From Mobula hypostoma (taxonomy: Eukaryota), in assembly GCF_963921235.1 (NCBI RefSeq), contig NC_086097.1, positions 19,656,001 to 19,720,000 of the forward strand: a stretch of DNA of 64,000 nucleotides, given 5' to 3'. Shown here in pieces: positions 115 to 57,483 of this stretch (positions are counted from its first letter, which is position 1; every line of letters starts with the position of its first letter). Position numbers and translations under genes: made by a program. The notes beneath the pieces were generated by a model that was given only the letters and a program-made list of their open reading frames with translations, was not told where the DNA came from and did not search any database.

Positions 115-993
115 AAATAGACCTTCACTTTTCCCTTATATAATGCAACATGTCATACGCGTTCCTCCCCTCTAAATCCTGTCCGCCTCTCTCTATGCTG
201 TACCTTATGGCCCACATTGTAACCCAAACTCCCCTGCCCTGGTCAGCCGCTCTATTGCGCACCCCTCCCTTGCCTTGGGCACCCTTTTCTTACCTGACTA
301 ATTGTACTGTCCTCAAGGATTGTTCATGCAGTGGGGCTTTATTCAGTGTAACTTCTTCCCTTAAACCTGAGGCTTTTCTCATCCTCTTCCTGTGTCCACA
401 GTTCCTGGGTCACGGAGGGAAATCTCACTTTAGTCCCTGGAGTAAACTGGCCAGAACTACTTGCTTTACACAGCTGAGTCGCCCATCTGTATGGGAGGGG
501 TCGTGACTGTCACGTGACAGCACTGCCCATTTACCTGGTCAAAAGACACGCCACCTGCCGATCAAGGTTTGACCCCTCCTCGCCCACCAATGCACACCTA
601 ACCATTGGCCCCTTTAATTAGCCTTGTACTTGACCTTGGGCAATTGGCCTTTGTAATCAACTTAACCCTGCTGGCACTGAGCCATTGGCTTCCCTGTGAA
701 TCACCTGGGCTGGACTCATCAGCCCTGCTGCACTGAGCAGTGCCTGAAAACTTTCAGCCCGGGCAGAACGTGCAGAAGATCGGGGTGGGCTGGAGTTGCC
801 AATTCCACTAGGACTTTCCTGGACATCCATACCAGCACTATTCCAGTGGCCTGTTGGTTGGTTAGCCAAGGGGATTAATCTTGACAGTTAGCATGCAGGA
901 TTGCTTGGGTAGGGAGAAAGGGATTCATTGTTGTCCCTCAGTGCCTTCATAGCAAGCCGAGGTCAAGGGGAAACGTCAAGTCATCACCTCAGT

Positions 994-1530
994 TTAATTC
1001 CACATCCCATTCCCATTCTGACATGTCTATCCACGGCCTCCTCTACTGTAAAGATGAAACCACACTCAGGTTGGAGGAACAACACCTTATATTCTGTCTG
1101 GGTAGCCTCCAACCTGATGGCATGAACATCGACTTCTCTAACTTCTGCTAAGGCCCCACCTCCCCCTCGTACCCCATCTGTTACTTATTTTTATACACAC
1201 ATTCTTTCTCTCACTCTCCTTTTTCTCCCTCTGTCCCTCTGAATATACCTCTTGCCCATCCTCTGGGTCACACCCCACCCCCCTGTCACCTGTCCAGCTC
1301 TCGGCTCCATCCCTCCCCCTCCTGTCTTCTCCTATAATTTTGGATCTCCCCCTCCCCCCCCAACTTTCAAATCCCTTACTCACTCTTCCTTCAGTTAGTC
1401 CTGACGAAGGGTCTCGGCCTGAAACGTCGACTGCGCCTCTTCCTATAGATGCTGCCTGGCCTGCTGCGTTCACCAGCAACTTTGATGTATGTTGCTTGAA
1501 TTTCCAGCATCTGCAGAATTCCTGTTGTTT
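994..1530 (+). mobile_element. 5'-truncated Penelope-like element: GIY-YIG C-terminus plus 3' pseudo-LTR with hammerhead
   Basis: 993-1151 translates FNSTSHSHSDMSIHGLLYCKDETTLRLEEQHLIFCLGSLQPDGMNIDFSNFC*, a PLE endonuclease end; 8-bp TSD ACCTCAGT at 986-993 and 1531-1538. Confidence 0.88.
1397..1432 (+). ncRNA. Minimal type-I hammerhead ribozyme (PLE-associated)
   Basis: AGTC-CTGACGA-AGG(gtctcgg)CCT-GAAA-CG-TC^GACT: intact core, stem I AGTC/GACT, stem II AGG/CCT; predicted cut after 1428. Confidence 0.8.
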
Positions 1531-2250: not shown

Positions 2251-2729
2251 TCATTTTTTAAAAAAAATCTTTAGAATGACAGGCAGGCTTGACGAGCCAG
2301 CGGGGCACAAGAGATTCAGTGGGTGCTGCAAATCTTGGGCAACGCACACCAATACTGGAGGAGCTCAGCAGGTCAGGCGGCATCCTTGGAGGAGGGTAAA
2401 GAGTTGGAATTTCATTGCCGAGACCCTTCGCTGGGGCTCAGGACTCGTGAGCCCAGTGGGACGATTCCTGCTCTTGTGTGGCTGAAGAGGCAATTGCAAA
2501 GTGTGCCACTGGGTGGTGCTGGAGGACACAAGAATACCGGAAAGTGGCGCTGTGCTCAGCCCGTATTCCCAGCACTTGACTTGCCCATTCATCAGACGCT
2601 GGGCCTGAACCACCCGTCAGGAGGATCACACAACCCCACGAGGGTCCTGGGTCCCTCACTGACCAAAACTCGACCGCAGACCTGGGCTTCTTGTCGCGGG
2701 ATTTAAGAAAAATGGATGGTTTTGGGCTG

Positions 2730-2948
2730 CAACACACATCAAAGTTGCTGGTGAACGCAGCAGGCCAGGCAGCATCTCTAGGAAGAGGTACAGTCAACGT
2801 TTCAGGCCGAGACCCTTCGTCATTTCAGGGTCTCGGCCTGAAACGTCGACTGTACCTCTCCCTAGAGATGCTGCCTGGCCTGCTGCGTTCACCAGCAACT
2901 TTGATGTGTGTTGCTTGAATTTCCAGCATCTACAGAATTCCTGTTGTT
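2730..2948. mobile_element. Palindromic Penelope pseudo-LTR insertion
   Basis: ~90-bp inverted arms folded inside the hammerhead core; 13-bp TSD TGGTTTTGGGCTG at 2717-2729 and 2949-2961. Confidence 0.85.
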
Positions 2949-3679
2949 TGGTTTTGGGCTGTGTAGGAGGGAAGGATTAAATTGAACACAGAGTATGTTT
3001 TATAGGTCAGTAGAGCAGTGCAGGCTGAAGGCCCTGTGTTCTAACTTCTGTGACCCTTATGCAAAGGTTAGTGCTGCAACCCTTATTGTTTGTGCTACAT
3101 ATTAATGATTTGGATGTACGTTTGTAAATATGGGAGGTATGAAGGGCCTCAGCCCTAAATGGCAACTATTTATTCCTGTCCATAGATGCTGCCTGACCTG
3201 CTGAGTTCCTCCAGTGTTAGATGTGTGTGACTCTGGATTTCTAGCATCTGTAGATCCCTTGTGTTTGTGGGTGTGATCAGTAAGTTGGCGGATGACATGA
3301 AGGTTGGTGGTGGTGTGGAGAGCAAGGAAGGTTGTCCAAGGCTACGGCATGATACAGATTAGATAGGAAGTTGGACAAAGGGTTAGCAGGTGGAATTTAA
3401 TCCCGAAATGTGAGGTGATGAATTTTGGCAAGTCTCACAGACACAGGACACATACAGTAAGTGGTACAGTGTGATGGAGTGTGGATGAGCAGAGAGCTTA
3501 ATTCAAATCCCCCCTTCCCTGGCAGTGGCAAAGTGAGTGGATAAGGAGGTGAAGGAGCATGTGACGAGCTTCTTGTGTCACGGTAGAACAGATAAATTAA
3601 CAGTTTATTATTAACATACGTACCGAAGTACAGTGAAAAGCTTGTCTTGCATACCATCCATACAGATCCAGTTATTTAC

Positions 3680-3959: not shown

Positions 3960-4600
3960 GGATGTACAAGGTAAAAACAGTCATAGTGCAGAATAAAGTG
4001 TTACGGAGAAAGTGCAGTGCAGGTAGACCAAGGTGAAAGGTCACAATGAGGTACATTGTTAGGTCAAAAATCCATCATGTCTTACTAGGGAAGCATTCAG
4101 TAATCTTATAACAGTTGGATTGAAGATGTCTTTGTTCCTGGTGATACCTGCTTTCGGTATTTTCTGCCCAATGAGAGAGGGGAGAAGAGAGAATGCTTGG
4201 GGTGGGTGGGGTCCTTGATTATACTGGCTGAGGTAATGAGGCAGCAGGAAGTGTGGACAGAGTCTGTAGAGAAGAGGCTGTTCCTGTGATGTGCTGAGCT
4301 GTGTCCGCTGCTCTCTGCAGTTTCTTGTGGTCACTGGCACAGCAGTTGCCATAACAAACCGGGTTACATCCTGGCGGGATCCTTTCAATGCTGCATTGAG
4401 GTTCAGAGGGAACAGGCCTCCCGAGGAAGTGAGACAGTGGTGAGAGCTTTCTCGGCTGTGTCATCAACGTGGTCGGACCAGGACAGGCGGGTGGTGATGT
4501 TCACTTCTTGGAACTGCCAATCCTCTTGACCTCAGCACTGTTAATATCAGCAGGAGCATGGAGTCCTGAGGTCAATGGCTAGTTCTTTGGTTTTTCTTAT
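3960..4600 (-). mobile_element. Rex1/Babar-type LINE relic
   Basis: Degenerate C-terminal frames (CYGNCCASDHKKLQRAADTAQHITG; PHPPQAFSLLPS...FNPTVIRLLN). Confidence 0.6.
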
Positions 4601-4739: not shown

Positions 4740-4877
4740 GCAAACAGGAGGAATTCTGCAGCTGCTGGAAATTCAAGCAACACACATCAAAGTTGCTGGT
4801 GAATGCAGCAGGCCAGGCAGCATCTCTAGGAAGAGGTACAGTCGAAGTTTCAGGCCGAGACCCTTCATCAGTAGTCC
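4740..4877 (-). mobile_element. Penelope pseudo-LTR 3' end inserted into a CR1 relic
   Basis: Reverse complement of the 1400-1530 end; joined to an inverted copy of local DNA at 4878-4975. Confidence 0.8.
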
Positions 4878-6456
4878 TGACACAGCCGAGAAAACTCTCA
4901 CCACTGTCTCACTTCCTCGGGAGGACTGTTCCCTCTGAACCTCAATGCAGCATTGAAAGGATCCCGCCAGGATGTGATTCATCAGGATTGACGGACTTTG
5001 GACAGGCTTGGCTTGTTTTCTTTGGAGTGAACGAGGCTGAGTGTTGACTTGATATGGGCACAGATGGGATAGGTGGTTAGAATCAGAATCTTTCTCCCCG
5101 TGGTGAATCACAAACAAGAGGGATAGACTTGGGGTGAAAGAAAGGACTTTTAAAGGAGATTCGAGGGGAAAGCTTTCCACACAGAGTGTTGATCTTTAGA
5201 ACTCACTGCTGAAGGATATGGTGGCATTGGATACAAGCATGACTTTTAAGAAAGAGGTACTTACATGGGAAAGGCATACAAGGGTATGGACTTAATGTGG
5301 GCGTTTGGGCTGAGTGCAGATGGGTAATACGATCACAAGGTCTTGCTGGACATTAAGAACGTAAAGTACTGGAGGTCTACGCCATCAGCAAGTTGCTCCT
5401 TGGCGGATAAAATGAAGGAGCTGTGCATCGTGCTGCTGCCTGTGTTGAAGGAGGCGTACAGTCTAACAGCAAGTGACCATCTTGGTCACTTTACTTGTGA
5501 TCGCAAGACCCTTTGGCCATTGTTAATGTGGAGTGCCGCACGTTTGATTCACTGATTTGTTGGCTAAGAGCAGGGGCGGATGGCAGGGGAGCTGCGTGGC
5601 CTCGATTGTAGAGAGGATTAGGCCTTAAGCTGTGGGCATCGCCTGTTTACAGCTGCCAAGAGAGGTGTCAGAGTTGGTACGCTCAACCAGGGGCGGTGTG
5701 GTGCAGTGTCCAGGCTGGAGACAGTGCTGCCCCCCAGTGTACACTCAGCAGACGACAAGCTGTGTTGTGGTCAACTGCAGATTTCTGCGGCATTCATGGA
5801 TCAGGCCTGGTCTTTTGTTGTGTGGCTGTATCTTGCTGATATCTTTGCGTGCTTTGTGACTGTTGGGACTGTGTTTTGCACCTTGGCCCCAGAGAAATGT
5901 TGTCTCATTTGGCTGTATTCATGTATTGCTGAATGACAATTAAATTCGAATTAAATTGAAAATAATAACCTATTGTGGATCAAGGACTGGTCAACAGACT
6001 GAAAGGAATGAGTAAGAATAAGCTGGGGTGCTGTAACAAAGAGATCGGTTCTGTGCCCCAGATGTTCACAGTCTCTCAGTGAGTTGAATGGGGAGTGCAG
6101 GTGTAATTTGTTTAAGCTTGTTGATGTTGCCAAGCTGGGAGTCAGTGTGAGGATGATGCAGAGAGACGTCAGGACAATATGGGCAGACTAGGTGAGTATA
6201 CACGCAATAGAGTGCATGGCTTCCTAGCTTCCCAAGGCAGTACATCCATAATATCATCAACCACATTACAAAGCCCCAGTTCCACTCATGTGGCCTGTGA
6301 ACAATGACATATCAAATGGGGTCACAAGCTCCACCCTTACCTGCCCAGGTTGAGCTTTGAGCAGGGTGACGACTGTAGCCTGTGTCTGTCAGGGGAACCT
6401 TGCCTGTAGCCGTGTGGGTGTAGCTGCTGCTGATCTTCGTCCTCTCCTTCTCACAG

Positions 6457-6548
6457 AACGCCTTCGTGTCCATCTACCTGATCAACTGTTTCAGCCGCCT
6501 GATTGACCTCTCCACCACCATGTCCGACCTCGCGGGCTACGCACACAG
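6457..6548 (+). CDS. ABCD4: ABCD4 coding exon (exon 10 equivalent)
   Basis: tcacag|[31 protein letters not shown]|gtaggt; 92 bp; matches the end of the ABCD4 transmembrane domain. Confidence 0.93.
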
Positions 6549-6774
6549 GTAGGTGACGGCAGACCAGCGCGAGAGAGCGTGGGGGCGGGGCGAGGGAGAG
6601 AGGGAGGGGAGTTTGAAAAAGGGTGACAGCAAGAGGAAGGAGAAGAGATCGAGGTGTGTAGGAGCAGGGAGAGAGTGAAGGGGAAAGGCTGGAAAAGGAG
6701 AGGGAGTGTGGAAGAGGGTATGGACTGGGCAAACCATGCTAGCAATAACAACGTGGTGAACAAACTCCATGTGG

Positions 6775-15693: not shown

Positions 15694-18060
15694 GTAAATG
15701 TGGGGAGGACACGGCAGCAATCGGTCCAGGGTGGGTAAGTGGGAGGGGGGTGATGGATGGATCAAGGAATTAGCTTTTTTCATCATGTACATTAATACGT
15801 ATTATGAATTTGCTGTGGTGTATTGGTCTGGATGTGACATGTCAACAATTACAAAGAATTGTATAAGAAATACATAATTATGTGTGTGTGTGTGTATATT
15901 ATTTATTTTAGAGGTTAAAAGATGGGTATGGAATAAAACGTGCATCAATAAAAGCCAGTATATATTTACAATAAAACATTATAAAAAGCAGATTAAAGAG
16001 TCTACAGTGCAGCAATGGGGGTAATAAAGGGGGTGGGGGAGCACTAACTAGAATGGTTGATCAGAATATATGCCTGGGGGATATGAAACTTTTAAGATGG
16101 TGTGAAGTTTTGGCGGGTGGTAGGATGAGGAGAGCAGACAGAGACCTCGAGAGGCTCTTGACGTTGCTCAAGGCAGGGGCAACAGTGGTGGGTGATGGGT
16201 GAGGTGGCCTGGATCACTTTCGCCTTTCTCTCACTCCCTCCATTTCCTCCTACAGTGAGGAAGGTGGGGGGGGGTAAGTGGGCAGACCAGGGGGCAATAG
16301 CGTTGCCAAGGAATGCTGGCCATTGGAAGGCGGAGGCAGGAGGGAGCACTGGGAGGGTGGGGGAGAGGAGGGCAGAGGCACAGAATGGAGGGGGGGGTGA
16401 ACAGAGAGAGGATGTTTCCAATAGTGGGAGAATCTTCAGACCAGAGGGCATGGCCTCAGAAGACAAGGACATCCCTTTAGAATAGAGAGGAATTTCTTTA
16501 ACCAGAGGGTGGTGCATCTGTGGAATTCCTTGCCACAGAATGAAAGACGTTCATCAAACTATGCGAGGCTCAGATTGGGGAGATGGTCAGAATCTTTTTC
16601 CCAGGGTAAGCAATGTCAAATACCAGAAGGCATGCAGAAAGACTAGAATAGCTAGAAGCAGGATACTAGTAGGACTTCCCTATAAAACAGAGATGAGGAA
16701 GAATTTCTTTGAGCGGAAGGTGGTGAATCTGGAATTCTTTGCAACGGAGGGCTGTGCAGGCCGAATCATTGGGTACATTAAAAGTGGAGGTTGATAGGTT
16801 CTTGATTAGTCAGGGCATCAAAGGTTACCGGAGAAGGCAGGAGAATGGGGTTGAGAGGGATAGTAAATCTGCCATGATCAAATGCTGGAGCAGACTCATT
16901 GGGCTGAATGGTCTATTTCTGCTCCTATGTCTTGTGGAAGAAGAGACCTCTGGGTAAAGCCAGTGGGAGTACTGGGTGGAGGGGAGAGGGAGCCCACTAG
17001 TAGAGAGGTGTGGAAACCCTATGCTGGCGAGGGCAGGGTCAACTCCAGCTTAAAGTCTGGGCAGTGATTGGGACAGAACACTGGTGGGGAATGTGGGGGA
17101 TTGGGGGGGTGGGCAGGGAGGGAGAGTACATGAGTCCCTGGAATGTCAGTGCTACAACATGCAAATGAGGCCATACGGCCTCTGGAGCTCCCTGCAAAAT
17201 GCCTGCAATTCCAAAATTCAGATAACAGACAGCTGGAGAAACTCAGCAGGTCAGGCAGCATAGAACATCGAACGCTACAACACAGTACAGGCCTGTCGGC
17301 CCACGATGTTATGCCAACCTTTTAACCTACTCTTAAGATCAATCTAACCCATCCCTCTTAGATAGCCCTTAATTTTTCTGTCATCCATGTGCCTATTGAA
17401 GAGTCTCATAAATGTCCCTAATATATCTGCCTCTATCTCCATCCCTCGCCATGCACCCATCGGTCTCTGTGTATCTCCTCCCACCCCCTGTACTTTCCTC
17501 CAATCACCTTAAAGTTATGCCCCCTGATATTAATCATTTTCGCTCTGGCGAAAAGTTACTAGCTATCCACTTGGTCTATGCCTCTTTTCATCTTGTACAC
17601 CTCTGTCACCTCCTATCCTCCTTTGCTCCAAAGAGAAAATCCTAACCTCCTCAAGTTATCTTCATAAGAAATGCTCTCTAATCCAAGCAGCATCCTGGTA
17701 AGTCTCCCCTGCACCTTCTCTAAACCTTTCACATTCTCCCAGAACTGAACATAATACTCCATGTGTGGTCTAACCAGGGACTTGATAGAGCTGCATTGTG
17801 ACTTCCCGGTTCTTTAACTCAATCAACTCGCATAATGAAGTCCAATATGCCATCTCACCCCTCATCTGGATTAAATCCCAGTGTGAATGAAAGGTTTCAG
17901 TCCAAGCATCGACTGTCCATATTCCTCTGCGGATGCTCCTCGACCTGCCGAGTTCCTCCAGCAGTTTGTGTTTTCTTTTGCTCCAGATTCCAGCATCTGC
18001 AGTCTCTTGTATCTCCATTTTGTTTGGTAACAAAGCTAATAATTTTGTCTCTTTGAACAG

Positions 18061-18097
18061 GTGATTTACCCTTTGAAGGAAATTTACCCTGTAACAG
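18061..18097 (+). CDS. ABCD4: ABCD4 coding exon (exon 14 equivalent)
   Basis: gaacag|VIYPLKEIYPVT(G)|gtacca; 37 bp. Confidence 0.92.
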
Positions 18098-18190
18098 GTA
18101 CCAAATTGCCTATCTTTCTATATCCCAAAACAACACTCACAACACGCTGGAGGAACTCAGCAGGTCGGGCAGCATCCGTGGAAAAGATCG

Positions 18191-18224
18191 GTCGACGTTT
18201 CGGGCCGGAACCCTTCGTCAGGAC
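18191..18224 (-). ncRNA. Minimal type-I hammerhead ribozyme
   Basis: Minus strand GTC-CTGACGA-AGGGTTCCGGCCC-GAAA-CG-TC^GAC. Confidence 0.75.
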
Positions 18225-18226
18225 AA

Positions 18227-18260
18227 GTCCTGACGAAGGATTCCGGCCTGAAACGTCGAC
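18227..18260 (+). ncRNA. Minimal type-I hammerhead ribozyme
   Basis: GTC-CTGACGA-AGGATTCCGGCCT-GAAA-CG-TC^GAC; predicted cut after 18257. Confidence 0.75.
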
Positions 18261-18395
18261 CGATCTTTTCCACGGATGCTGCCCGACCTGCTGAGTTCCT
18301 CCAGCGTGTTGTGAGTGTTGCTTTGACCCCAGCATCTGCAGAGTATTTTGTGCTTCCTATAGGGAATTGTGACACTGTTGCATTGTATCTCATAG

Positions 18396-18445
18396 GTTCA
18401 GCAGATGACAAGAGAATCATCCACTTCTTGGAGGTGACTGGATTG
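18396..18445 (+). CDS. ABCD4: ABCD4 coding exon (exon 15 equivalent)
   Basis: tcatag|(G)SADDKRIIHFLEVTGL|gtaagt; 50 bp. Confidence 0.92.
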
Positions 18446-21277
18446 GTAAGTTGAAAATTGGTTTATTGGTGTCACATGTACAAAGTTACAATTGGAAACT
18501 CTCTTGCATGCTGCCCCTACAAATCCTTTACAACATTGATTCGTCGAGAGTACAAGAGTAAAACAATAACAAAATGCAGTATTGTATATAGTGTTACACT
18601 TAGTGTTACATACTGTGTTACAATTACAATGTTACGTATAGTGTTAGTTACAGGGAAAGTACAGTATAGGCAGACAATGTGGAAGAGCCATGGTGAGGCG
18701 GATGGTGAAGTCGAGTCCATCTTATCCGGCTAAAGGTTCATGCAGTAGCCCTCTAACTGTGGGATAGAAACTGTCCATCAGCTTGGTGGTGTGTAATTCG
18801 GGGCTTTTGCATCTTCAGTGATAGAATTGTTTAGGTGAGTGGAAATATCATGGAGATGTAGGTGGTGAGGTCAAAAATCCATCTTGTTGTTCAGGAGGTT
18901 CATTCAGTAGTCCTATTACAGCAGTATAGAAGCTGATCTTGAGCCTAGTGGTGTGTAATTTGGGGATTTTGTATCTCCTGCCCGATGGGAGAGAGAATGG
19001 CTGGGAAGAGAGGTGTCTTTGATTCTGTTGCCTGCTTTGCCGAGGTAGTGAAGTGCAGAGTCCATGGGGATTTCCCTTCAGTAAAGGTGGGGGTGGGAAC
19101 TGTCCCTGTGTTTTGCCTCTCAGTCCTTATGATCTGGTCCAGTCCTGACCCCTGCTGCTGTCTGTGCAGGTTACAAGTTCTCTCATTGACAGGCTGGGTT
19201 TCCCCTGGGTGCCCTGGCTTTCTCCCACATCCCAAAGATGTGATGGGCTCATTTTCCAGGGTGGGTAAATGTCAAAGAGACAATGAGTGCAAGAGCGAAT
19301 ACATTGGAGGTACAGAGAAATTAGAGAGGGAATGGGGTTAATGGGATTGTTCTGCTGGGAACCTGTATAGATCAGATGGGCTGAGTGGCCTGCTTCTGTG
19401 CCATACTGAATAAGTACTTACCCCTTAATCAGAAAAACATATTATGCAGTTATTACACTGTTATGGAATCTTGCTGTGTGCAATTTGGCCGCTAACAAAA
19501 GCATCTCGTTGAATCAGAATCAGGTTTGATATCACTGGCATAATTCGTGAAATTTTTTGTCTTTCTGGCAGCAGTGTACTGCAATACATAATAATAGAAA
19601 AACATGAATTACGTTAAGTATATTTTTATTAAATAGTTAAATAAAATGGTGCAAGTAAGTAATAATGTCTTGAGAGGGATGTTGACAGCTGCTATATGAA
19701 TGCAGGACTACGAAGAGCTCCTTATTGTGTGTTTCCTGTCACTGTGTGTTTGGATGATTTCATTGGTTCATGTCCGACCAATCTGCTTGTCTCTTGATAA
19801 CCTTCTGACATGTGCAACTAAATTCAGGAGAGTCAGTCTAGGGAGCAAAAGCACATCCCAAAAAACTTTACCTGAACTAATCTTGTGTTTATGCATAGAC
19901 ACCTCCAACACCGTGCTCTTCCCTAATCAGTACTTTAGAAGCATAGAAAACCTACAGCACAATACAGGCCCATGGTAAATTGGTGCTTTATTGTCACATG
20001 TACCGAGGTACAGCGAAAAGCTTTGATCCATACAGATCATTTCATCTCATCAACACTTAGAGGAAGTACAAGGGCAAAGCAATAACAATGCAGAATAAAG
20101 TGTTACAGAGAAAGTGTAGGCAGACAATAAGGGCAAGATGTGAAGAGGCAGATTGTAAGGTTTAGAGTCCATCTTATACTACGAGACTGTTCAGTGGTGG
20201 GATGCAAGCTGACTTTGATCCTGGTGGTATGTGCTTTCAGGCTTGGGCATCTTTGTGTTGATCGATATCATTGCGATGTTTTTAAAGTGGTGTAGCTTGT
20301 AGAGCCACTGCCTCATGTGTCCAGTGACCTGAGTTCTATCCCGACCGTCTGTGTGGAGTTTACGTGTTCTCACTCTGACTCCAGGTGCTCCAGTCTCCTC
20401 CCACATTCCAAAGAAGTGCAATTCGGTCGGCTAATTGGCTACTGTAAGTTACCCCTGTTGTGCAGGAGAGTGGTAGAATCTGGGGATAGTTGATGGGAAT
20501 GTGAGGAGAACAAAATGGGATGAATGAGCGCTTGATGGTCAGTTAGTATGGACATGTAGGGCCGAAGGGCTCTTTTCTGTGTTGCTTGGTTCTATGACTC
20601 TCTATTTGATTTGGAAGAGAGTTAATGAAAATAATGTAAACTCTAATCTGTTTCCCATCTCGCCATACGGCAGAAAACAAATTGATTTCAACGAGGCACA
20701 CGGTATGTAAGGACTGTGCAGAATCCCTACATTTGTATAAAACGGTGGTTAGACCACATTTGGAGTGTTACTTGCAATTCTAGTTGTCCCATTGCCAGAA
20801 GAATGAGGAGGCTTTGGAGAGGATGCAGAAGAGATCCACTAGTGTGTCGCGTGGACTAGAGAGTATTGGAAAAGTTGGACTCGGATTGGTTTCTCTGGAA
20901 TATCAGAGGCTGAGGGGTGACCTGAGAGAATTTTATCGGATTATGCAAGGCATCAATAGTTCAAAGTAAATTTATTGTCGAAGTACGTATACGTCACCAT
21001 ATACAGCCCTGAGATTAATTGTCTTTGCTCATACTCAAAAAATGCACAGAATAATAACCATAACAGAATCAATGAAGGAAAGGGTAGATAGTCAGTTTCT
21101 CTTGGTCTGGAAGTTTTATGTACGAGGGAGCACAGCTTTAATGTGTGAGGGGCAGAGCTTGATGCTAATTTGCATGACACTTTTTTTTCCCCACATGCAG
21201 TGGTGGGTGCCTGAAATGTGCTGCCAAGGGCAATGGTGGAAGCAAATGCAATAGCAGAGTTGAAGAACCATTTAGAC

Positions 21278-27125: not shown

Positions 27126-27241
27126 TTTTAGATGAAGCTACAAGTGCCCTGACGGAAGAGACGGAAGCTGAGCTGTACCACATCTGTAAACAGCTGGGGA
27201 TGACAGTCGTCAGCGTGGGACACCGTAGTAGTTTGGAGAAG
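27126..27241 (+). CDS. ABCD4: ABCD4 coding exon (exon 18 equivalent, Walker B and H-loop)
   Basis: cccag|(V)[38 protein letters not shown]|gtgggt; 116 bp. Confidence 0.95.
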
Positions 27242-28881: not shown

Positions 28882-29301
28882 GATCAATGCCTCTCATCAT
28901 CTTGTACACCTCTATCAGGTCACCTCTCATCCTCCATTGCTCCAAGACCTGGCTGATGGGGGTCCTTAATGATGGATGGACGTCCGCCGCCTTTTTGAGG
29001 CATTGTTCCTTGAAGTTGTCCTGGATACTGTGGAGGCCAGTGCCTGTGACAGAGCTGACTAAGCTTCCAAGTCTCTGCAGCTTATTTCGATCCTGTACTG
29101 TGCTCTCCCAGCCCACATGTTGGTGCAACCGGTTAGAATGCGCTCCACAGTACATCCGTAGACATTTGTGAGTGTCTTAGGTGACCTATCAAATCTCCTC
29201 AAACTCCTAATGAACTATAGCCGCTGTTGTGCGTTCTTTGCAGCTGCATCAATGTGTTGGGTCCAGGATAGATCCTGAGAAATGTTGACACTCAAGAGCT
29301 T
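28882..29301 (-). repeat. Inverted duplicate of 30145-30564
   Basis: 420 bp, highly similar, and includes the same Rex1/CR1 junction. Confidence 0.88.
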
Positions 29302-30124
29302 GGCTGTGAACGATTAACCCAAGTTCACTTGGCACTGCTGGCTCTGAGGAGTTTGTCATTCACCCCATTACCGCGTGGCTTTCCTCCACAGTCCAAAGAT
29401 GTATGGGTTATTAAGGTAGTTGGTCACATGGATGTAATTGGATGGTGCAGACTCATTGGGCTGGGAGGGCTTGTTACCCCGTTGTGTTTCTAGGTAAAAT
29501 TAAAATCAAGATCTAGGGAGTGAAGGTTTAAGGTGAACAGGGAAAGATTTGATAGGAACCTCCCCCAGTCTCATGACCTACCCATCACATCTCTTTGGTT
29601 CTCCTCTCCTTCCCTTAGTTCGATGGTCAGATTCCTCCTCCTCCAGCTCTTTGCCTCTTCCACCTATCACCTCCCAGCTTCTCACATCATTCCCTTTAAT
29701 CCCCCCTTCCCTACCCCCCCCTTACTTATTCTCACCTATTTATCTGCCATCTGGTGCTGCTGCCCTTTCCCCCACCTTTTTATTCTGGTTTCTGTATTCC
29801 ACATTTCCAGCCTTGGTGAAGTGTCTTGGCCCAAAACGTTAACAGTTCCTTTCACTCAGCAGGTGCTGCCTGACCTACTGAAACCCCGCAGCATTTTGAT
29901 TGTGTGTTGTTTATTAGGAACTTTTACATCCAGAGGAAGTGGTTGAGACAAGTACATTAACATTTAAAAGATACCTCAAATACGTACATGGGTAGGAAAG
30001 GGTTAGAGGGATTTGGGCCAAATGGGAGAAGATTAAACAGGCATCCTGGTCACTGTGGACCAGAAGGTCCTGTTTCTGTGCTGTATTGCTCCATGAATCC
30101 TCATCGAGGGATCAGAAGTGGAAG

Positions 30125-31140
30125 GAGGGAAAGAGAGAAATTTCAAGTTCTTGGGTGTCAACATCTCTCAGGATCTATCCTGGACCCAACACATCGATGC
30201 AGCTACAAATAAGGCACAACAGCGGCTATATTTCATTAGGGGTTTGAGGAGATTTGATATGTTACCTAAGACACTCACAAATGTCTACGGATGTACTGTG
30301 GAGCGCATTCTAACTGGTTGCACCAACATGTGGGCTGGGAGAGCACAGCACAGGATCGAAATAAGCTGCAGAGACTTGGAAGCTTAGTCAGCTCTGTCAC
30401 AGGCACTGGCCTCCACAGTATCCAGGACAACTTCAAGGAACAATGCCTCAAAAAGGCGGCAGACGTCCATCCATCATTAAGGACCCCCATCACCCAGGCC
30501 TTGGGGCAATGGAGGATGAGAGGGGACCTGATAGAGGTGTATAAGATGATGAGAGGCATTGATCGTGTGGATAGTCAGAGCCTTTTTCCTAGGGCTGAAA
30601 TGGCTAGCACGAGAGGGCAGTTTTAAGGTGCTTGGAAGAAGGTACAGGGGAGATGTCAGGGGGTAAATTTTTTTACGCAGAGAGTGGTGAGAGCGTGGAA
30701 TGGGCTGCCGGCGACAGTGGTGGAAGCAGATACGATAGGGTCTTTTAAGAGACTCCTGGATAGGTACATGGAGCTTAGAAAAATAGAAGGCTATGGGTTA
30801 CCCTAGGTAATTTCTAAGGTAAGGACTCAGCTTTGTGGGCCAAAGGGCCTGTATTGTGCTGTAGGTTTTCTACGTTTCTCATCGCCATTGGCAGGGAAGA
30901 GAAACAAAGGTCTGAATGTACACACTCAATGATTCAGGAACAGCTTCTTCCCCTCTACCTTCTGATTCCTGAATGGACATTGAACCTATGAACACTACCT
31001 CACTACTTTTTTTAGTTCTATCTGCACTACTAATTTAATTCAATTATCTTACAATTTTTTTTCTCTTTTTATGCATTGCTGCCGCAAATACAACAAATTT
31101 CACATCGGCCGATGATAATTCAGCGTGATTCTGATTCTGA
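30125..31140 (+). mobile_element. Rex1/Babar relic with nested CR1 3' end (~30500-30880)
   Basis: FKFLGVNISQDLSWTQHI...KAQQRLYFIRGL; CR1 RMRGDLIEVYKMMRGID; GATTCT tail. Confidence 0.75.
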
Positions 31141-31971: not shown

Positions 31972-32347
31972 TATGGACTTCGATAATAAATTTATTTGTA
32001 CTTTGAAGCTGCTCAGTTGGCAGTAAGCAATATTGTGGGTGTAGCTATACCTCACGGACTGCAGTGGTTCAAGAAGGCAGCTCACTGTCACCTTCTCAAC
32101 CAACAATTGCAGATAGACAAATGCTCGCTCAGCCTGCGAACCCCACACCCCAATCACCCAGTTCATAAATGAATAAAACAGGCCACTTGGTCCATTGACT
32201 GTACTGGCTGTCTGAGGAACAATCCAGGGTGAGGGATTAAGATGCAAGGACAGGAAGGGAAGGTGTAGTGGTATTGTTGAGGCGATGGGTAACCATCCCA
32301 ACAGCACAATAAGCTGATCAGTTTGTACTTCTCTTCTCTTCCGACAG

Positions 32348-32419
32348 CATCATGACTCTGTGTTGAACCTGCTGGGAGGTGGAAGGTGGGAGCTGACCGA
32401 AGTCCAGCACAGCAGCTGA
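32348..32419 (+). CDS. ABCD4: ABCD4 last coding exon
   Basis: cgacag|HHDSVLNLLGGGRWELTEVQHSS* (TGA 32417-32419). Confidence 0.9.
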   Translation, partial: HHDSVLNLLGGGRWELTEVQHSS

Positions 32420-34470: not shown

Positions 34471-34748
34471 CTCGCAAATGAAACCTGCGGAAATGAAAAC
34501 CCACTGACTTGGAAATACTTTTCTGCCCAGATTCTCTCTCTCTGAGTATCAATGAGTATTTCTGTCATTTTCTGTTTCTATTTAAGGAAAGATGGAGTGA
34601 GGAAATCAGGTAGGTTTTAAAGCAATTATGGAATCATTAGTTAAATTGAGAAGGCAGTTCAGGGAAAACAACTATCAAATGACAGACAACACACATAAAA
34701 GTTGCTGGTGAACGCAACAGGTCAGGCAGCATCTCTAGGAAGAGGTGC

Positions 34749-34784
34749 AGTCGACGTTTCAGGCCGAGACCCTTCGTCAGGACT
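34749..34784 (-). ncRNA. Minimal type-I hammerhead ribozyme
   Basis: Minus strand AGTC-CTGACGA-AGGGTCTCGGCCT-GAAA-CG-TC^GACT. Confidence 0.8.
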
Positions 34785-35415
34785 AACTGAAGGAAGAGTG
34801 AGTAAGGGATTTGAAAGTTGGAGGGGGAGGGGGAGATCCAAAATGATAGAAGACAGGAGGGGGAGGGATAGAGCCAAGAGCTGGACGGGTGATAGGCAAA
34901 AGGGATACGAGAGGATCATGGGACAGGAGGTCTGGGAAGAAAGACAAGGTGGGGGGGGACCCAGAGGATGGGCAAGGGGTATATTCAGAGGGACAGAGGG
35001 AGAAAAAGGAGAGAGAGAGAAAGAATGTGTGTATAAAAATAAGTAACAGATGGGGTACGAGGGGGAGGTTGGGCATTAGCGGAAGTTAGGGAAGTCGATG
35101 TTCATTAGCGGCAGTTAGAGAAGTCTGTTCCCCACCTCCCCCTCGTACCCCATCTGTTACTTATTTTTATACACACATTCTTTCTCTCACCTTTTTCTCC
35201 CTCTGCCCCTCTGAATATACCCCTTGCCCATCCTCTGGGTCCCCCCCCCTTGTCTTTCTTCCCGGACCTCCTGTCCCATGATCCTCTCGTATCCCTTTTG
35301 CCTGTCACCTGTCCAGCTCTTGGCTCTATCCCTCCCCCTCCTGTCTTCTCCTATCATTTTGGATTTCCCCGTCCCCCTCCAACTTTCAAATCCCTTACTC
35401 ACTCTTCCTTCAGTT

Positions 35416-35451
35416 AGTCCTGACGAAGGGTCTCGGCCTGAAACGTCGACT
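35416..35451 (+). ncRNA. Minimal type-I hammerhead ribozyme
   Basis: AGTC-CTGACGA-AGGGTCTCGGCCT-GAAA-CG-TC^GACT; predicted cut after 35447. Confidence 0.8.
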
Positions 35452-36250
35452 GCACCTCTTCCTAGAGATGCTGCCTGGCCTGCTGCATTCACCAGCAACT
35501 TTTATGTGTGTTGCTTGAATTTCCAGCATCTGCAGAATTCCTGTTGTTTGCGATCAAATGACAGACAAAAGGTTTCCAGTAAAAGAAGCAGTGGGGTTAA
35601 TGTTACAATAAAGGGACGAGCATAAGAAAAGATGCATCATTGAGGTTTGGAAGCTCGGAGAGGAGGTGAGAGAAATGGTGTCCTCAAAGATTGTTAAATG
35701 TTAGCTGTGAAGTGAACCCTGAGTTACTGTCCTGGCAGGCTTGAAAGAAATCAATATGGAGGGAGTGTAAAATGGAGATCTTTGAGAACTGAAGAGGTAA
35801 ACAGTGCTTTCTGTAGTCCTGCTGGGCGTGTCACAAGGACCGTGGTGCTCAGGTTAACATGCAGTTGGATAGAAAATAGAAGAAATAAGCTATTCAAGCA
35901 TCCCCCGCCATTCCAATACAATCAGGCTGAGCCTCTGTCGCAACACCGTACTCCCACACCTCCTGAGGACATGTTTAGAAATCCTATCAACTATTTCAAA
36001 TCATAGAAATAAGCTCTTTGGCCCAACTCATCCATGTCAACCTCAGCTAGCCCCATTTAACCATATCAATCAAAACCTTCCCTACCTATGTACCTGCCTC
36101 AATGTCTTTTAAACAGTGTAATTGTACTCACCTCTACCACTTTGCTCTGGCAGTTCCTTCCATGTACTCACAACGCACCTGTGGAAGAACTTATTCCTCA
36201 ATTCCCATTCACCCTCCTAATTTTGGACTCCCCTACCATGGGAAAAGCAC

Positions 36251-56401: not shown

Positions 56402-56608
56402 AAACACGAGGAAATCTGCAGATACTGGAAATTCAAGCAACACACATCAAAGTTGCTGGTGAACGCAGCAGGCCAGGCAGCATCTCTAGGAAGAGGTACA
56501 GTCGATGTTTCAGGCCGAGACGAAGGGTCTCGGCCTGAAACGTCGACTGTACCTCTTCCTAGAGATGCTGCTTGGCCTGCTGCGTTCACCAGCAACTTTG
56601 ATGTGTGT
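56402..56608. mobile_element. Palindromic Penelope pseudo-LTR insertion
   Basis: ~80-bp arms folded within the hammerhead; TSD TAC(G/A)TGTAAAATGC at 56388-56401 and 56609-56622. Confidence 0.85.
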
Positions 56609-57483
56609 TACATGTAAAATGCCTTGGGATTTTCCATAATTTTCTTCATCAAGACCTTCTGATGTCCCTTTTTAGCTCTCCTGAGTCCTTTTTAAGCTTC
56701 ATCCTGACTACCTTATAACACTTAAGAGCCATGTTGATCTTTGCTTCCTAAACTAAAGTATGCATCTATGCATTCCTCTTCCTCTTGACTAAAAGTTCCA
56801 CCTCTTGTCAACCACGGTTCCTTCACCCTACCTTCTTTTCTCTGCCTCAATGGGACAAACCTATCCAGGACCCTATGCAAGTGCCCCCTAAGCAAGCTCC
56901 ACACCTGTGTTGTGCAGATAAAGTGCAGTGCAGGTAGACAATAAGGAGCAAGAGCCCTGACAATGTAGATTGTGAAGTCAGGAGTTCCTGATATCAAACA
57001 ATTCAATATTCTTACAACAGTGAGACAAAAGCTGTCCTTCAGCCTGGCAGTTCATGCTTTCAGGTTTTTGAACTTTCTCCTTGAGGGGAAGGGAGCGAAC
57101 AGAAAATATCTGGGGTCTTTGATTGTGCTGGATGGTTTACTGAAATGGCAGGAAGTATAGACAGAGATCTTAGAGGTGGCTAGTTTCAACTATCCATTCA
57201 ATTCCACTTAGCAACTGACTGCTGAATTGACCTCTGAACTGTTCGAGGTGCTCCAGATCTAACAGCTCATTGGGTGAGCAGTTTTTGCTTCATTTGCTCT
57301 CCACCATCCCAGTTCTTTGGCTTTATTCCATGTCTTCCAGTTACCAGCCATTCTGCTAATTACTTGTCAAACTTCTCCTACTAATATTTTCTACCTCAGA
57401 CAGTGTGCACAGTCTCTCCCGAGGACGCAATTCCCTCTTCCCTGCAACAAATCTCCTATGATCGATGCAAAGAGTGCACTCAC

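Follow-up and report, generated by a model that had tools for sequence, protein, structure and literature searches.

A palindromic hammerhead repeat in an ABCD4 intron of the ray Mobula hypostoma, probably laid down by one Penelope-like insertion

The ABCD4 gene of the ray Mobula hypostoma contains a 298-nt intron that consists mostly of one near-perfect palindrome, in which two hammerhead ribozyme (HHR) motifs stand head to head on opposite strands. The question raised by this locus is whether such an arrangement was selected as a means of silencing a ribozyme within a gene, or whether it is simply the form in which a repeat was inserted. The stretch analysed, hereafter the window, comprises 64,000 nucleotides (contig NC_086097.1 of assembly GCF_963921235.1, positions 19,656,001 to 19,720,000 of the forward strand), and all plain coordinates count from its first letter. 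The reading favoured here, with a probability of roughly 0.8, is that the palindrome represents one insertion of a short non-autonomous Penelope-like element (PLE), an ordinary repeat copy in which the hammerhead motifs are passengers.

The host intron and its palindrome

The 3' half of the ABCD4 gene is situated on the + strand of the window, as found by tblastn with a ray ABCD4 protein (P0005). Its exons are collinear on this strand, from residues 315-347 at 6451-6549 through residues 594-617 at 32345-32416, and residues 1-314 map within 21 kb upstream of the window. Residues ~484-513 are divided between two micro-exons, 18061-18097 (bordered by AG/GT) and 18396-18445 (GT/AG). When joined, the two encode 29 residues that show no gap against annotated ABCD4 proteins, with identities of 26/28 to ray ABCD4, 23/29 and 24/29 to two sharks, and 22/29 to a mammal. 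This gapless alignment to the orthologues and the GT/AG borders show that the 298-nt intron and both micro-exons are real. The features of the locus are as follows.

18061..18097, + strand: ABCD4 micro-exon of 37 nt, ..VIYPLKEIYPVT plus the first base of a Gly codon (tblastn, P0005)
18098..18395, + strand: intron of 298 nt, GT..AG, between the two ABCD4 micro-exons
18126..18224, - strand: left arm, an inverted partial element copy without tail, its outer end near the proximal 3' end of the family
18191..18221, - strand: minimal hammerhead motif antisense to ABCD4, matching the subfamily consensus (unpaired A, 4-bp helix II, G10.1-C11.1)
18225..18226: spacer of 2 nt where the sequence turns back, 3 nt upstream of CUGA in either arm
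18227..18325, + strand: right arm, the primary copy, sense to ABCD4; the portion that pairs with the left arm
18230..18260, + strand: minimal hammerhead motif sense to ABCD4, with complete boxes and two private substitutions (G>A at 18240, C>T at 18249) that weaken helix II
18326..18355, + strand: tail of 30 nt on the right arm only, containing CCAGCATCTGCAG and matching the tail reported for PLEs (PMC8557442, PMC11167929)
18396..18445, + strand: ABCD4 micro-exon of 50 nt, the last two bases of the Gly codon plus SADDKRIIHFLEVTGL (tblastn, P0005)

The original intron measured about 65-68 nt (18098-18125 and 18356-18395), and the remainder of 18098-18395 is an insertion of 230 nt (18126-18355). 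Its palindromic part spans 200 nt, the 99-nt arms being 97% complementary (3 mismatches in 99 positions), and the one-sided tail makes up the rest. The first-pass annotation of this DNA had described a near-perfect palindrome of about 225 nt between exons of 37 and 50 nt; this description is borne out, with the exons verified and with lengths of 200 nt for the palindrome and 230 nt for the whole insertion. The last 40 nt of the intron (18356-18395), downstream of the insertion, likely hold the branch region and the pyrimidine tract, as judged from their sequence.

The predicted fold of the intron RNA is one long hairpin with a minimum free energy of -214.5 kcal/mol (z = -26), and none of 200 shuffled sequences was as stable. 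Based on this model, the hairpin very likely forms. The sense core would then be buried in a 99-bp stem, which agrees with the earlier proposal that it is locked in a duplex by its own antisense arm. The base of the hairpin, if formed, would stand 28 nt from the 5' splice site and 70 nt from the 3' splice site, and the splice sites would thus be brought closer together, as had also been anticipated. Additionally, the duplex of ~99 bp is a candidate substrate for ADAR or Dicer. An A>G signal at 18240 was considered as RNA editing and rejected; it comes from other copies of the family, and nearly all contigs from these carry G at this position. The contigs of four sequencing runs aligned here, of uncertain kind and made up mainly of other repeat copies, showed no splice joint, no editing signal and no ends at the motif.

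State of the hammerhead motifs

In the palindrome, CTGANGA-N12-TGAAACGTCGAC is matched by 18191-18221 (- strand) and 18230-18260 (+ strand), where chance alone would give 0 matches. On adding the 3-nt GTC of helix I, these give the same coordinates as the two opposite-polarity cores of the first-pass annotation (18191-18224 and 18227-18260), which were called complete. That term is justified for the conserved boxes, which are intact in both arms (CTGACGA ... GAAAC-GTC), with C3-U4-G5-A6-N7-G8-A9, G12-A13-A14, A15.1..U16.1 and H17 all present. It does not hold for the helices. Helix III and loop 3 are absent in both arms, C-G-U-C following directly after GAAA, and A15.1-C15.2-G16.2-U16.1 forms a self-complementary ACGU. 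The motif also has an extra unpaired A and a 4-bp helix II with a tetraloop. Helix I is limited in both arms to the 3 bp of GUC/GAC because the copy stops 3 nt upstream of CUGA; this is shorter than the 4-5 bp of PLE-type minimal hammerheads, and a solo copy of the family at 1401 has 5 bp. Helix II of the antisense arm (A + GGGU/GCCC) keeps G10.1-C11.1 at -3.9 kcal/mol, and that of the sense arm, with U at 11.1 and A at 10.3, is nearly abolished at -0.2 kcal/mol. Furthermore, each arm on its own prefers an inactive structure that pairs GACG of the first box with CGUC.

The Rfam hammerhead models (Hammerhead_1, _3, _II, HH9 and HH10) gave 0 matches at the gathering score in the 64-kb window, and none at E<=10 in 18000-18500 or 900-1600. 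Sub-threshold Rfam matches to microRNA (miRNA), RUF6 and small nucleolar RNA models were rejected as generic hairpin artefacts. By sequence, the motifs are minimal hammerhead ribozymes (min-HHRs) of the PLE type and not canonical Rfam hammerheads. In PLE repeats, min-HHRs acquire helix III only when two copies of equal polarity dimerise (Cervera & de la Pena 2014, PMC4209133). Single min-HHRs showed no detectable cleavage in vitro and dimers showed little (PMC4209133), and a lizard PLE HHR cleaved only with the protein of the element, no RNA-seq reads ending at the cut site (PMC11167929). The transcript of the ABCD4 intron holds one copy per polarity, and thus no same-polarity partner is present in cis for a dimeric helix III. 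By analogy with these relatives, the sense ribozyme is presumably inactive; its predicted cleavage site, if it were ever active, would be 18257/18258. As a lone copy without helix III cannot form the active dimer, and as the sense copy has lost helix II too, the hammerhead motifs are regarded as passengers.

Both private substitutions of the sense arm, 18240 and 18249, fall within the 13-nt helix II segment, one of them being a CpG transition. Chance may account for this coincidence, or it could hint at selection against the sense ribozyme in the pre-mRNA.

A repeat family rich in palindromes

The insertion belongs to an abundant family. The 31-nt core of a sister subfamily occurs 39,897 times as an exact match (19,921 + 19,976) in the 3.48-Gb assembly and 0 times in a reversed control. 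The full unit is ~541 nt long and without an open reading frame (ORF), as seen in the window copy at 990-1530 and in three other copies of equal length, and ARAGORN found no head resembling transfer RNA (tRNA) in it. A literature search, conducted mostly without full text, found no description of this ray element family. The ABCD4 palindrome copy is 76% identical to the sister-subfamily copy at 1397, which shares 92-95% identity with further members of its own subfamily, in agreement with the earlier assignment of the two to distinct subfamilies.

For the structure of individual copies, a contiguous sample of 264 kb (200 kb upstream plus the window) was searched by blastn with two reference copies, yielding 77 family matches. 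The 3' ends of solo copies in this sample favour two places, reference positions 394-398 and 429-433. The gap between the two corresponds to the ~35-nt tail containing CCAGCATCTGCAG, and the minimal hammerhead motif lies ~65-100 nt upstream of the 3' ends. The 5' ends of 13 of the 47 solo copies fall at reference 296-303, just upstream of the core (302-332). Hammerhead cleavage was rejected as the source of these ends, the cleavage site being at reference 329/330, and a second cluster at 336-347 proved to be an artefact of truncated alignments and old diverged copies.

The palindromic form is a product of the insertion process and is common everywhere sampled. Tight head-to-head double-core junctions (CCTTCGTCAG-N0-14-CTGACGAAGG) are present at no fewer than 1,242 loci genome-wide, a lower bound for tight double-core palindromes that includes the ABCD4 locus, with 0 in the control. 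Among neighbouring copies at most 60 nt apart in the 264-kb sample, 10 pairs are head-to-head, 0 tail-to-tail and 3 tandem. Four of the 10 head-to-head pairs lie inside the window, namely the ABCD4 intron and the following three.

2729..2949: second palindromic copy, junction in the core, tail on the right arm only, 12-bp target-site duplication (GGTTTTGGGCTG)
34687..35549: third palindromic copy, long arms that turn back ~280 nt upstream of the motif, only the right arm tailed, 13-bp target-site duplication
56402..56609: fourth palindromic copy, junction in the core, tail on the left arm only, target-site duplication of ~10 bp

All 10 tight pairs of the sample have exactly one tailed arm. In a second set, the first 20 other double-core loci on contig C1, one tail was found in 19 cases, two tails in none and no tail in one, so that the tail is confined to exactly one arm in 29 of the 30 palindromes combined. 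The end point of the tail-less arm varies in the contig C1 set and is most often near reference 390-403. For 7 of the 10 sample pairs, the palindrome as a whole is enclosed by a target-site duplication (TSD) of at least 10 bp (flanks judged by eye), and 13 of the contig C1 set of 20 have an exact one of 11 bp or more, which shows a single-event origin for these relatives. In 6 of the 10 pairs, the inner ends of both arms map just 5' of the core, at reference 296-312. The turn-back point varies, and in the copies at 2729 and 56402 the junction falls in the core and removes the CUGA box. Since two of the four window palindromes thereby lose part of both cores, the palindromic form is not built around an intact ribozyme.

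Solo copies of the family also reside in ABCD4 introns in the sense orientation.

990..1530, + strand (sense): full-length solo copy of the sister subfamily, ~541 nt, no ORF, in an upstream ABCD4 intron
1401-1431, + strand (sense): complete motif of this solo copy, with 5-bp helix I

A second solo sense copy with complete boxes is located in another ABCD4 intron, at -4681 relative to the window, and in both solo copies (1401 and -4681) positions 15.2/16.2 are palindromic.

Several other repeats surround the locus. An older, diverged family copy (17909-18002, + strand, ~71-77% identity) stops 58 nt short of the 37-nt exon, on its upstream side; together with the intronic insertion, this copy leaves the micro-exon pair flanked by family copies on both sides. 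Contig depth at 16384-17700 and 19478-21024 is thousands-fold over that of the unique intron and marks other high-copy repeats in the neighbouring introns. An inverted repeat at 4366-4463 / 4878-4975 (98-nt arms, 98% complementary, 414 nt between) encloses an antisense family copy at 4742-4871. Another, at 28882-29302 / 30144-30564 (421-nt arms, 95% complementary, 841 nt between), lies within the ABCD4 intron between the exons 27126-27241 and 32345-32416.

Origin of the palindrome and its meaning

In published accounts, PLE insertions often adjoin an inverted 5'-truncated copy and often have a tail of 30-40 bp at one end only (Craig et al. 2021, PMC8557442). Moreover, reverse transcription by a purified PLE protein begins at two neighbouring internal positions, which mark the limits of the tail, and the protein also cuts both strands of the target and extends them (Frangieh et al. 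2024, PMC11167929). The ABCD4 copy has the same hallmarks of insertion, a one-sided tail at 18326-18355 and an inverted 5'-truncated copy, the left arm, adjoining its 5' end. The likeness to PLE insertions (PMC8557442, PMC11167929) extends to the two 3' ends ~35 nt apart, the one-sided tail, the inverted partial copy at the 5' end, an HHR placed roughly 70-100 nt upstream of the 3' ends and, in the relatives, TSDs that vary in length. Unlike the PLE insertions of these accounts, the ABCD4 insertion encodes no reverse transcriptase (RT) or endonuclease (EN) and totals just 230 nt; because it is so short, the arms form a tight hairpin with a 2-nt spacer. As the element encodes nothing, it can at most be a non-autonomous dependant of a PLE.

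The insertion may be pictured as follows. First-strand complementary DNA (cDNA) would be primed at the distal start site and would yield the right arm with its tail. Synthesis would then turn back, either by a template switch or snap-back on the nascent copy or through a second cDNA primed on the other target strand, and the turn-back product would be the tail-less left arm. The whole product would be sealed into the ~65-nt intron, downstream of the 5' splice site and upstream of the branch region. Within the pre-mRNA, the insertion would fold into the 99-bp hairpin and loop itself out, leaving the splice signals of the intron unaffected. The insertion is probably tolerated because the hairpin loops out, the splice signals are untouched and the 3' segment of the intron is retained.

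A further and more tentative idea is that the thousands of short palindromes are a natural record of one defined step of Penelope-type integration, in which priming takes place at the distal site, synthesis runs to a fixed RNA 5' end and then turns back. That 5' end would lie at the foot of hammerhead helix I, away from the ribozyme cleavage site. On its way back, the strand would in most cases come to a stop close to the proximal start site, and the tail on one arm in 29 of 30 palindromes would be a result of this proposed stop. If this is true, the RNA of the element is started or trimmed just 5' of the hammerhead, not by canonical self-cleavage, and a testable model becomes available for the long-unexplained inverted and tail structures of PLEs.

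Possible autonomous partners were looked for through the GIY-YIG endonuclease domain. Matches above the Pfam cut-off are numerous in the genome (39 scored, of 27,350 first-look candidates), and the domain forms the C-terminus of its frame. In one frame of 529 aa, a C-terminal GIY-YIG is preceded by RVT_1, whose match (E = 1.3e-6) falls slightly below the cut-off. At four of eight GIY-YIG loci, an element copy precedes the endonuclease domain by 0.6-1.2 kb on the same strand, which may reflect chance, the element being dense, or a real association. These copies are listed below.

L043 2218-2773: element copy near a GIY-YIG frame
L048 188-744: element copy near a GIY-YIG frame
L045 2922-3251: element copy near a GIY-YIG frame, in a unit of the same tandem array as the next
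L047 2908-3252: element copy near a GIY-YIG frame, in the other unit of that array

GIY-YIG frames recur at spacings of ~2.1, 3.6, 4.9 and 5.0 kb on G000 contig C130 (~559,000-575,000) and of ~2.8 and 5.9 kb on contig C18 (~109,594,000-109,604,000), which suggests tandem arrays of Penelope-like elements. An irregular head-to-head copy at L049 86-237, with a - arm covering unit 409-499 and a + arm of only 486-541, sits 2.1 kb downstream of an RT plus GIY-YIG frame, on the same strand as its - arm.

Several points weigh against an origin by one Penelope-like insertion. Around the insertion at 18126-18355 the best TSD candidate is only 5 nt (CTATA/CCTAT). In view of this unconvincing TSD, the single-event origin of the ABCD4 copy itself is argued by analogy with its relatives and from the common end and subfamily of the arms. 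No terminus common to the element and an autonomous PLE was found in the eight GIY-YIG loci and one RT-EN locus, and the element copies near these loci could be chance neighbours. The inactivity of the ribozyme is deduced from related motifs in the literature, and the placement of both private substitutions in helix II could hint that the motif is not entirely harmless. As for the order of the polymerase steps, near-symmetrical junctions favour snap-back, whereas a few asymmetrical pairs (such as 322/271 and 304/378) favour two independent cDNAs. Lastly, the tail stem-loop weakly matches the UnaL2 3' element, which leaves some room for mobilisation by a long interspersed nuclear element (LINE).

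This last point belongs to the alternative that survives best, though it too is quite unlikely: a short interspersed nuclear element (SINE) moved by a LINE of the L2/UnaL2 type through recognition of a 3' stem-loop, with twin priming or template switching by the enzyme of that LINE as the source of the inverted arms. The element is indeed short and without an ORF, and the stem-loop at 1474-1527, at the border of the short and long 3' ends, resembles the UnaL2 LINE 3' element in Rfam. However, that match is non-significant (15.9 bits, E = 6.8) and far under the gathering score of 55 bits, the element has no tRNA-like head, and no 3' microsatellite or poly(A) was seen at the ends of the sample pairs inspected. 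Moreover, 3' ends 35 nt apart, a one-sided tail, a min-HHR and inverted copies together make up the published signature of PLEs (PMC8557442, PMC11167929, PMC4209133).

The first-pass annotation had proposed instead that the palindromic form is selected inside genes, the antisense arm locking an active sense ribozyme as a safety catch that lets such insertions persist. The fully paired state of the sense core in the predicted hairpin suits this proposal, and so does the position of both private sense-arm substitutions in helix II, which would be sensible if the sense ribozyme were mildly harmful. But palindromes arise mechanically at insertion, their variable junctions often destroy the core, and the sense helix II is itself damaged in the ABCD4 copy, which also has no helix III and a helix I of 3 bp. 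Single min-HHRs had no detectable cleavage in the published tests (PMC4209133; PMC11167929). Two solo sense copies with complete motifs persist in other ABCD4 introns, and thus a safety catch is neither needed nor indicated. The proposal is considered highly improbable.

Very little weight is given to a DNA transposon that naturally takes the form of a hairpin, of the foldback type or of the type of miniature inverted-repeat transposable elements, or to a hairpin RNA gene arisen by exaptation, for example the precursor of a miRNA or mirtron. A near-perfect hairpin is what either would present, and sub-threshold Rfam miRNA matches exist (mir-2432 at 44.3 bits against a gathering score of 100, mir-1791 and mir-491), yet these are far below the gathering score and reflect the long stem only. 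The element is mostly solo and non-palindromic (47 solo matches vs 10 tight pairs), and the palindromes have unequal arms, a one-sided tail and a junction point that differs between copies. Least probable of all, and hardly credible, are two independent insertions that met head-to-head by chance, as might happen if one copy homed into another: PLEs are reported (PMC11167929) to nick their own sequences and build complex arrays, and the ABCD4 copy has no clear TSD, but its arms start at the identical nucleotide, belong to the same subfamily and differ at 3/99 positions, one TSD surrounds both arms in the relatives, and the tallies of 10 head-to-head vs 0 tail-to-tail pairs and of a one-arm tail in 29/30 palindromes speak against it.

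A Penelope-like insertion thus remains the favoured origin, and the locus may be placed among known systems on this basis. With the min-HHRs of PLEs (PMC4209133) the ray motif shares the type-I topology, CUGANGA and GAAA boxes, an extra unpaired nucleotide and, in the antisense arm, G10.1-C11.1. The absence of helix III and loop 3, the palindromic 15.2/16.2, the short helix I and the occurrence of copies numbering thousands per genome, mostly as single truncated motifs, are likewise shared. "Dual" motifs lying close together on opposite strands are noted in Schistosoma in the same paper. Differences from the same source are that helix II has 7-8 bp in Schistosoma and 4 bp with a tetraloop in the ray, and that the ray carrier is a 541-nt unit without ORF. 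Non-LTR (non-long terminal repeat) retrozymes resemble the ray element in being non-autonomous, HHR-bearing and PLE-related; they are reported to be absent from birds and mammals and present in a cartilaginous fish (Cervera & de la Pena 2020; Li et al. 2026 preprint). Those retrozymes are described there as head-to-tail tandems whose paired ribozymes excise circular RNA, whereas the ABCD4 copy is head-to-head. Retrozyme-type tandem neighbours number only 3 pairs among the 77 family matches.

Canonical type I and type III hammerheads, as well as those in amniote introns, have tertiary contacts besides all three helices, and orthologous sites keep them conserved. Like the amniote intronic hammerheads (Rfam Hammerhead_HH9 and HH10), the ABCD4 motif places a hammerhead core within an intron of a protein-coding gene, on its sense strand. 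Unlike them, it matches no Rfam hammerhead model and belongs to a recent repeat copy. Inverted Alu pairs offer another parallel, in that a long intramolecular pre-mRNA duplex would form, would be a candidate for ADAR or Dicer and would shorten the effective distance between splice sites; the ABCD4 hairpin differs in that it probably comes from one insertion event, not from two elements.

For the gene itself, the consequence appears to be small, a ~65-nt ABCD4 intron having taken up a 230-nt retroelement hairpin with its splice signals kept. For annotation, the locus calls for caution, as an intronic hammerhead core that seems "complete" in a vertebrate may prove to be a passenger motif, without helix III, carried by an abundant repeat, and palindromic pairs of such motifs are a mechanical by-product of insertion. 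With ~40,000 exact cores, at least 1,242 tight palindromes and a near-invariant one-sided tail, the ray genome provides a large natural sample for the inverted copies and tails of PLEs.

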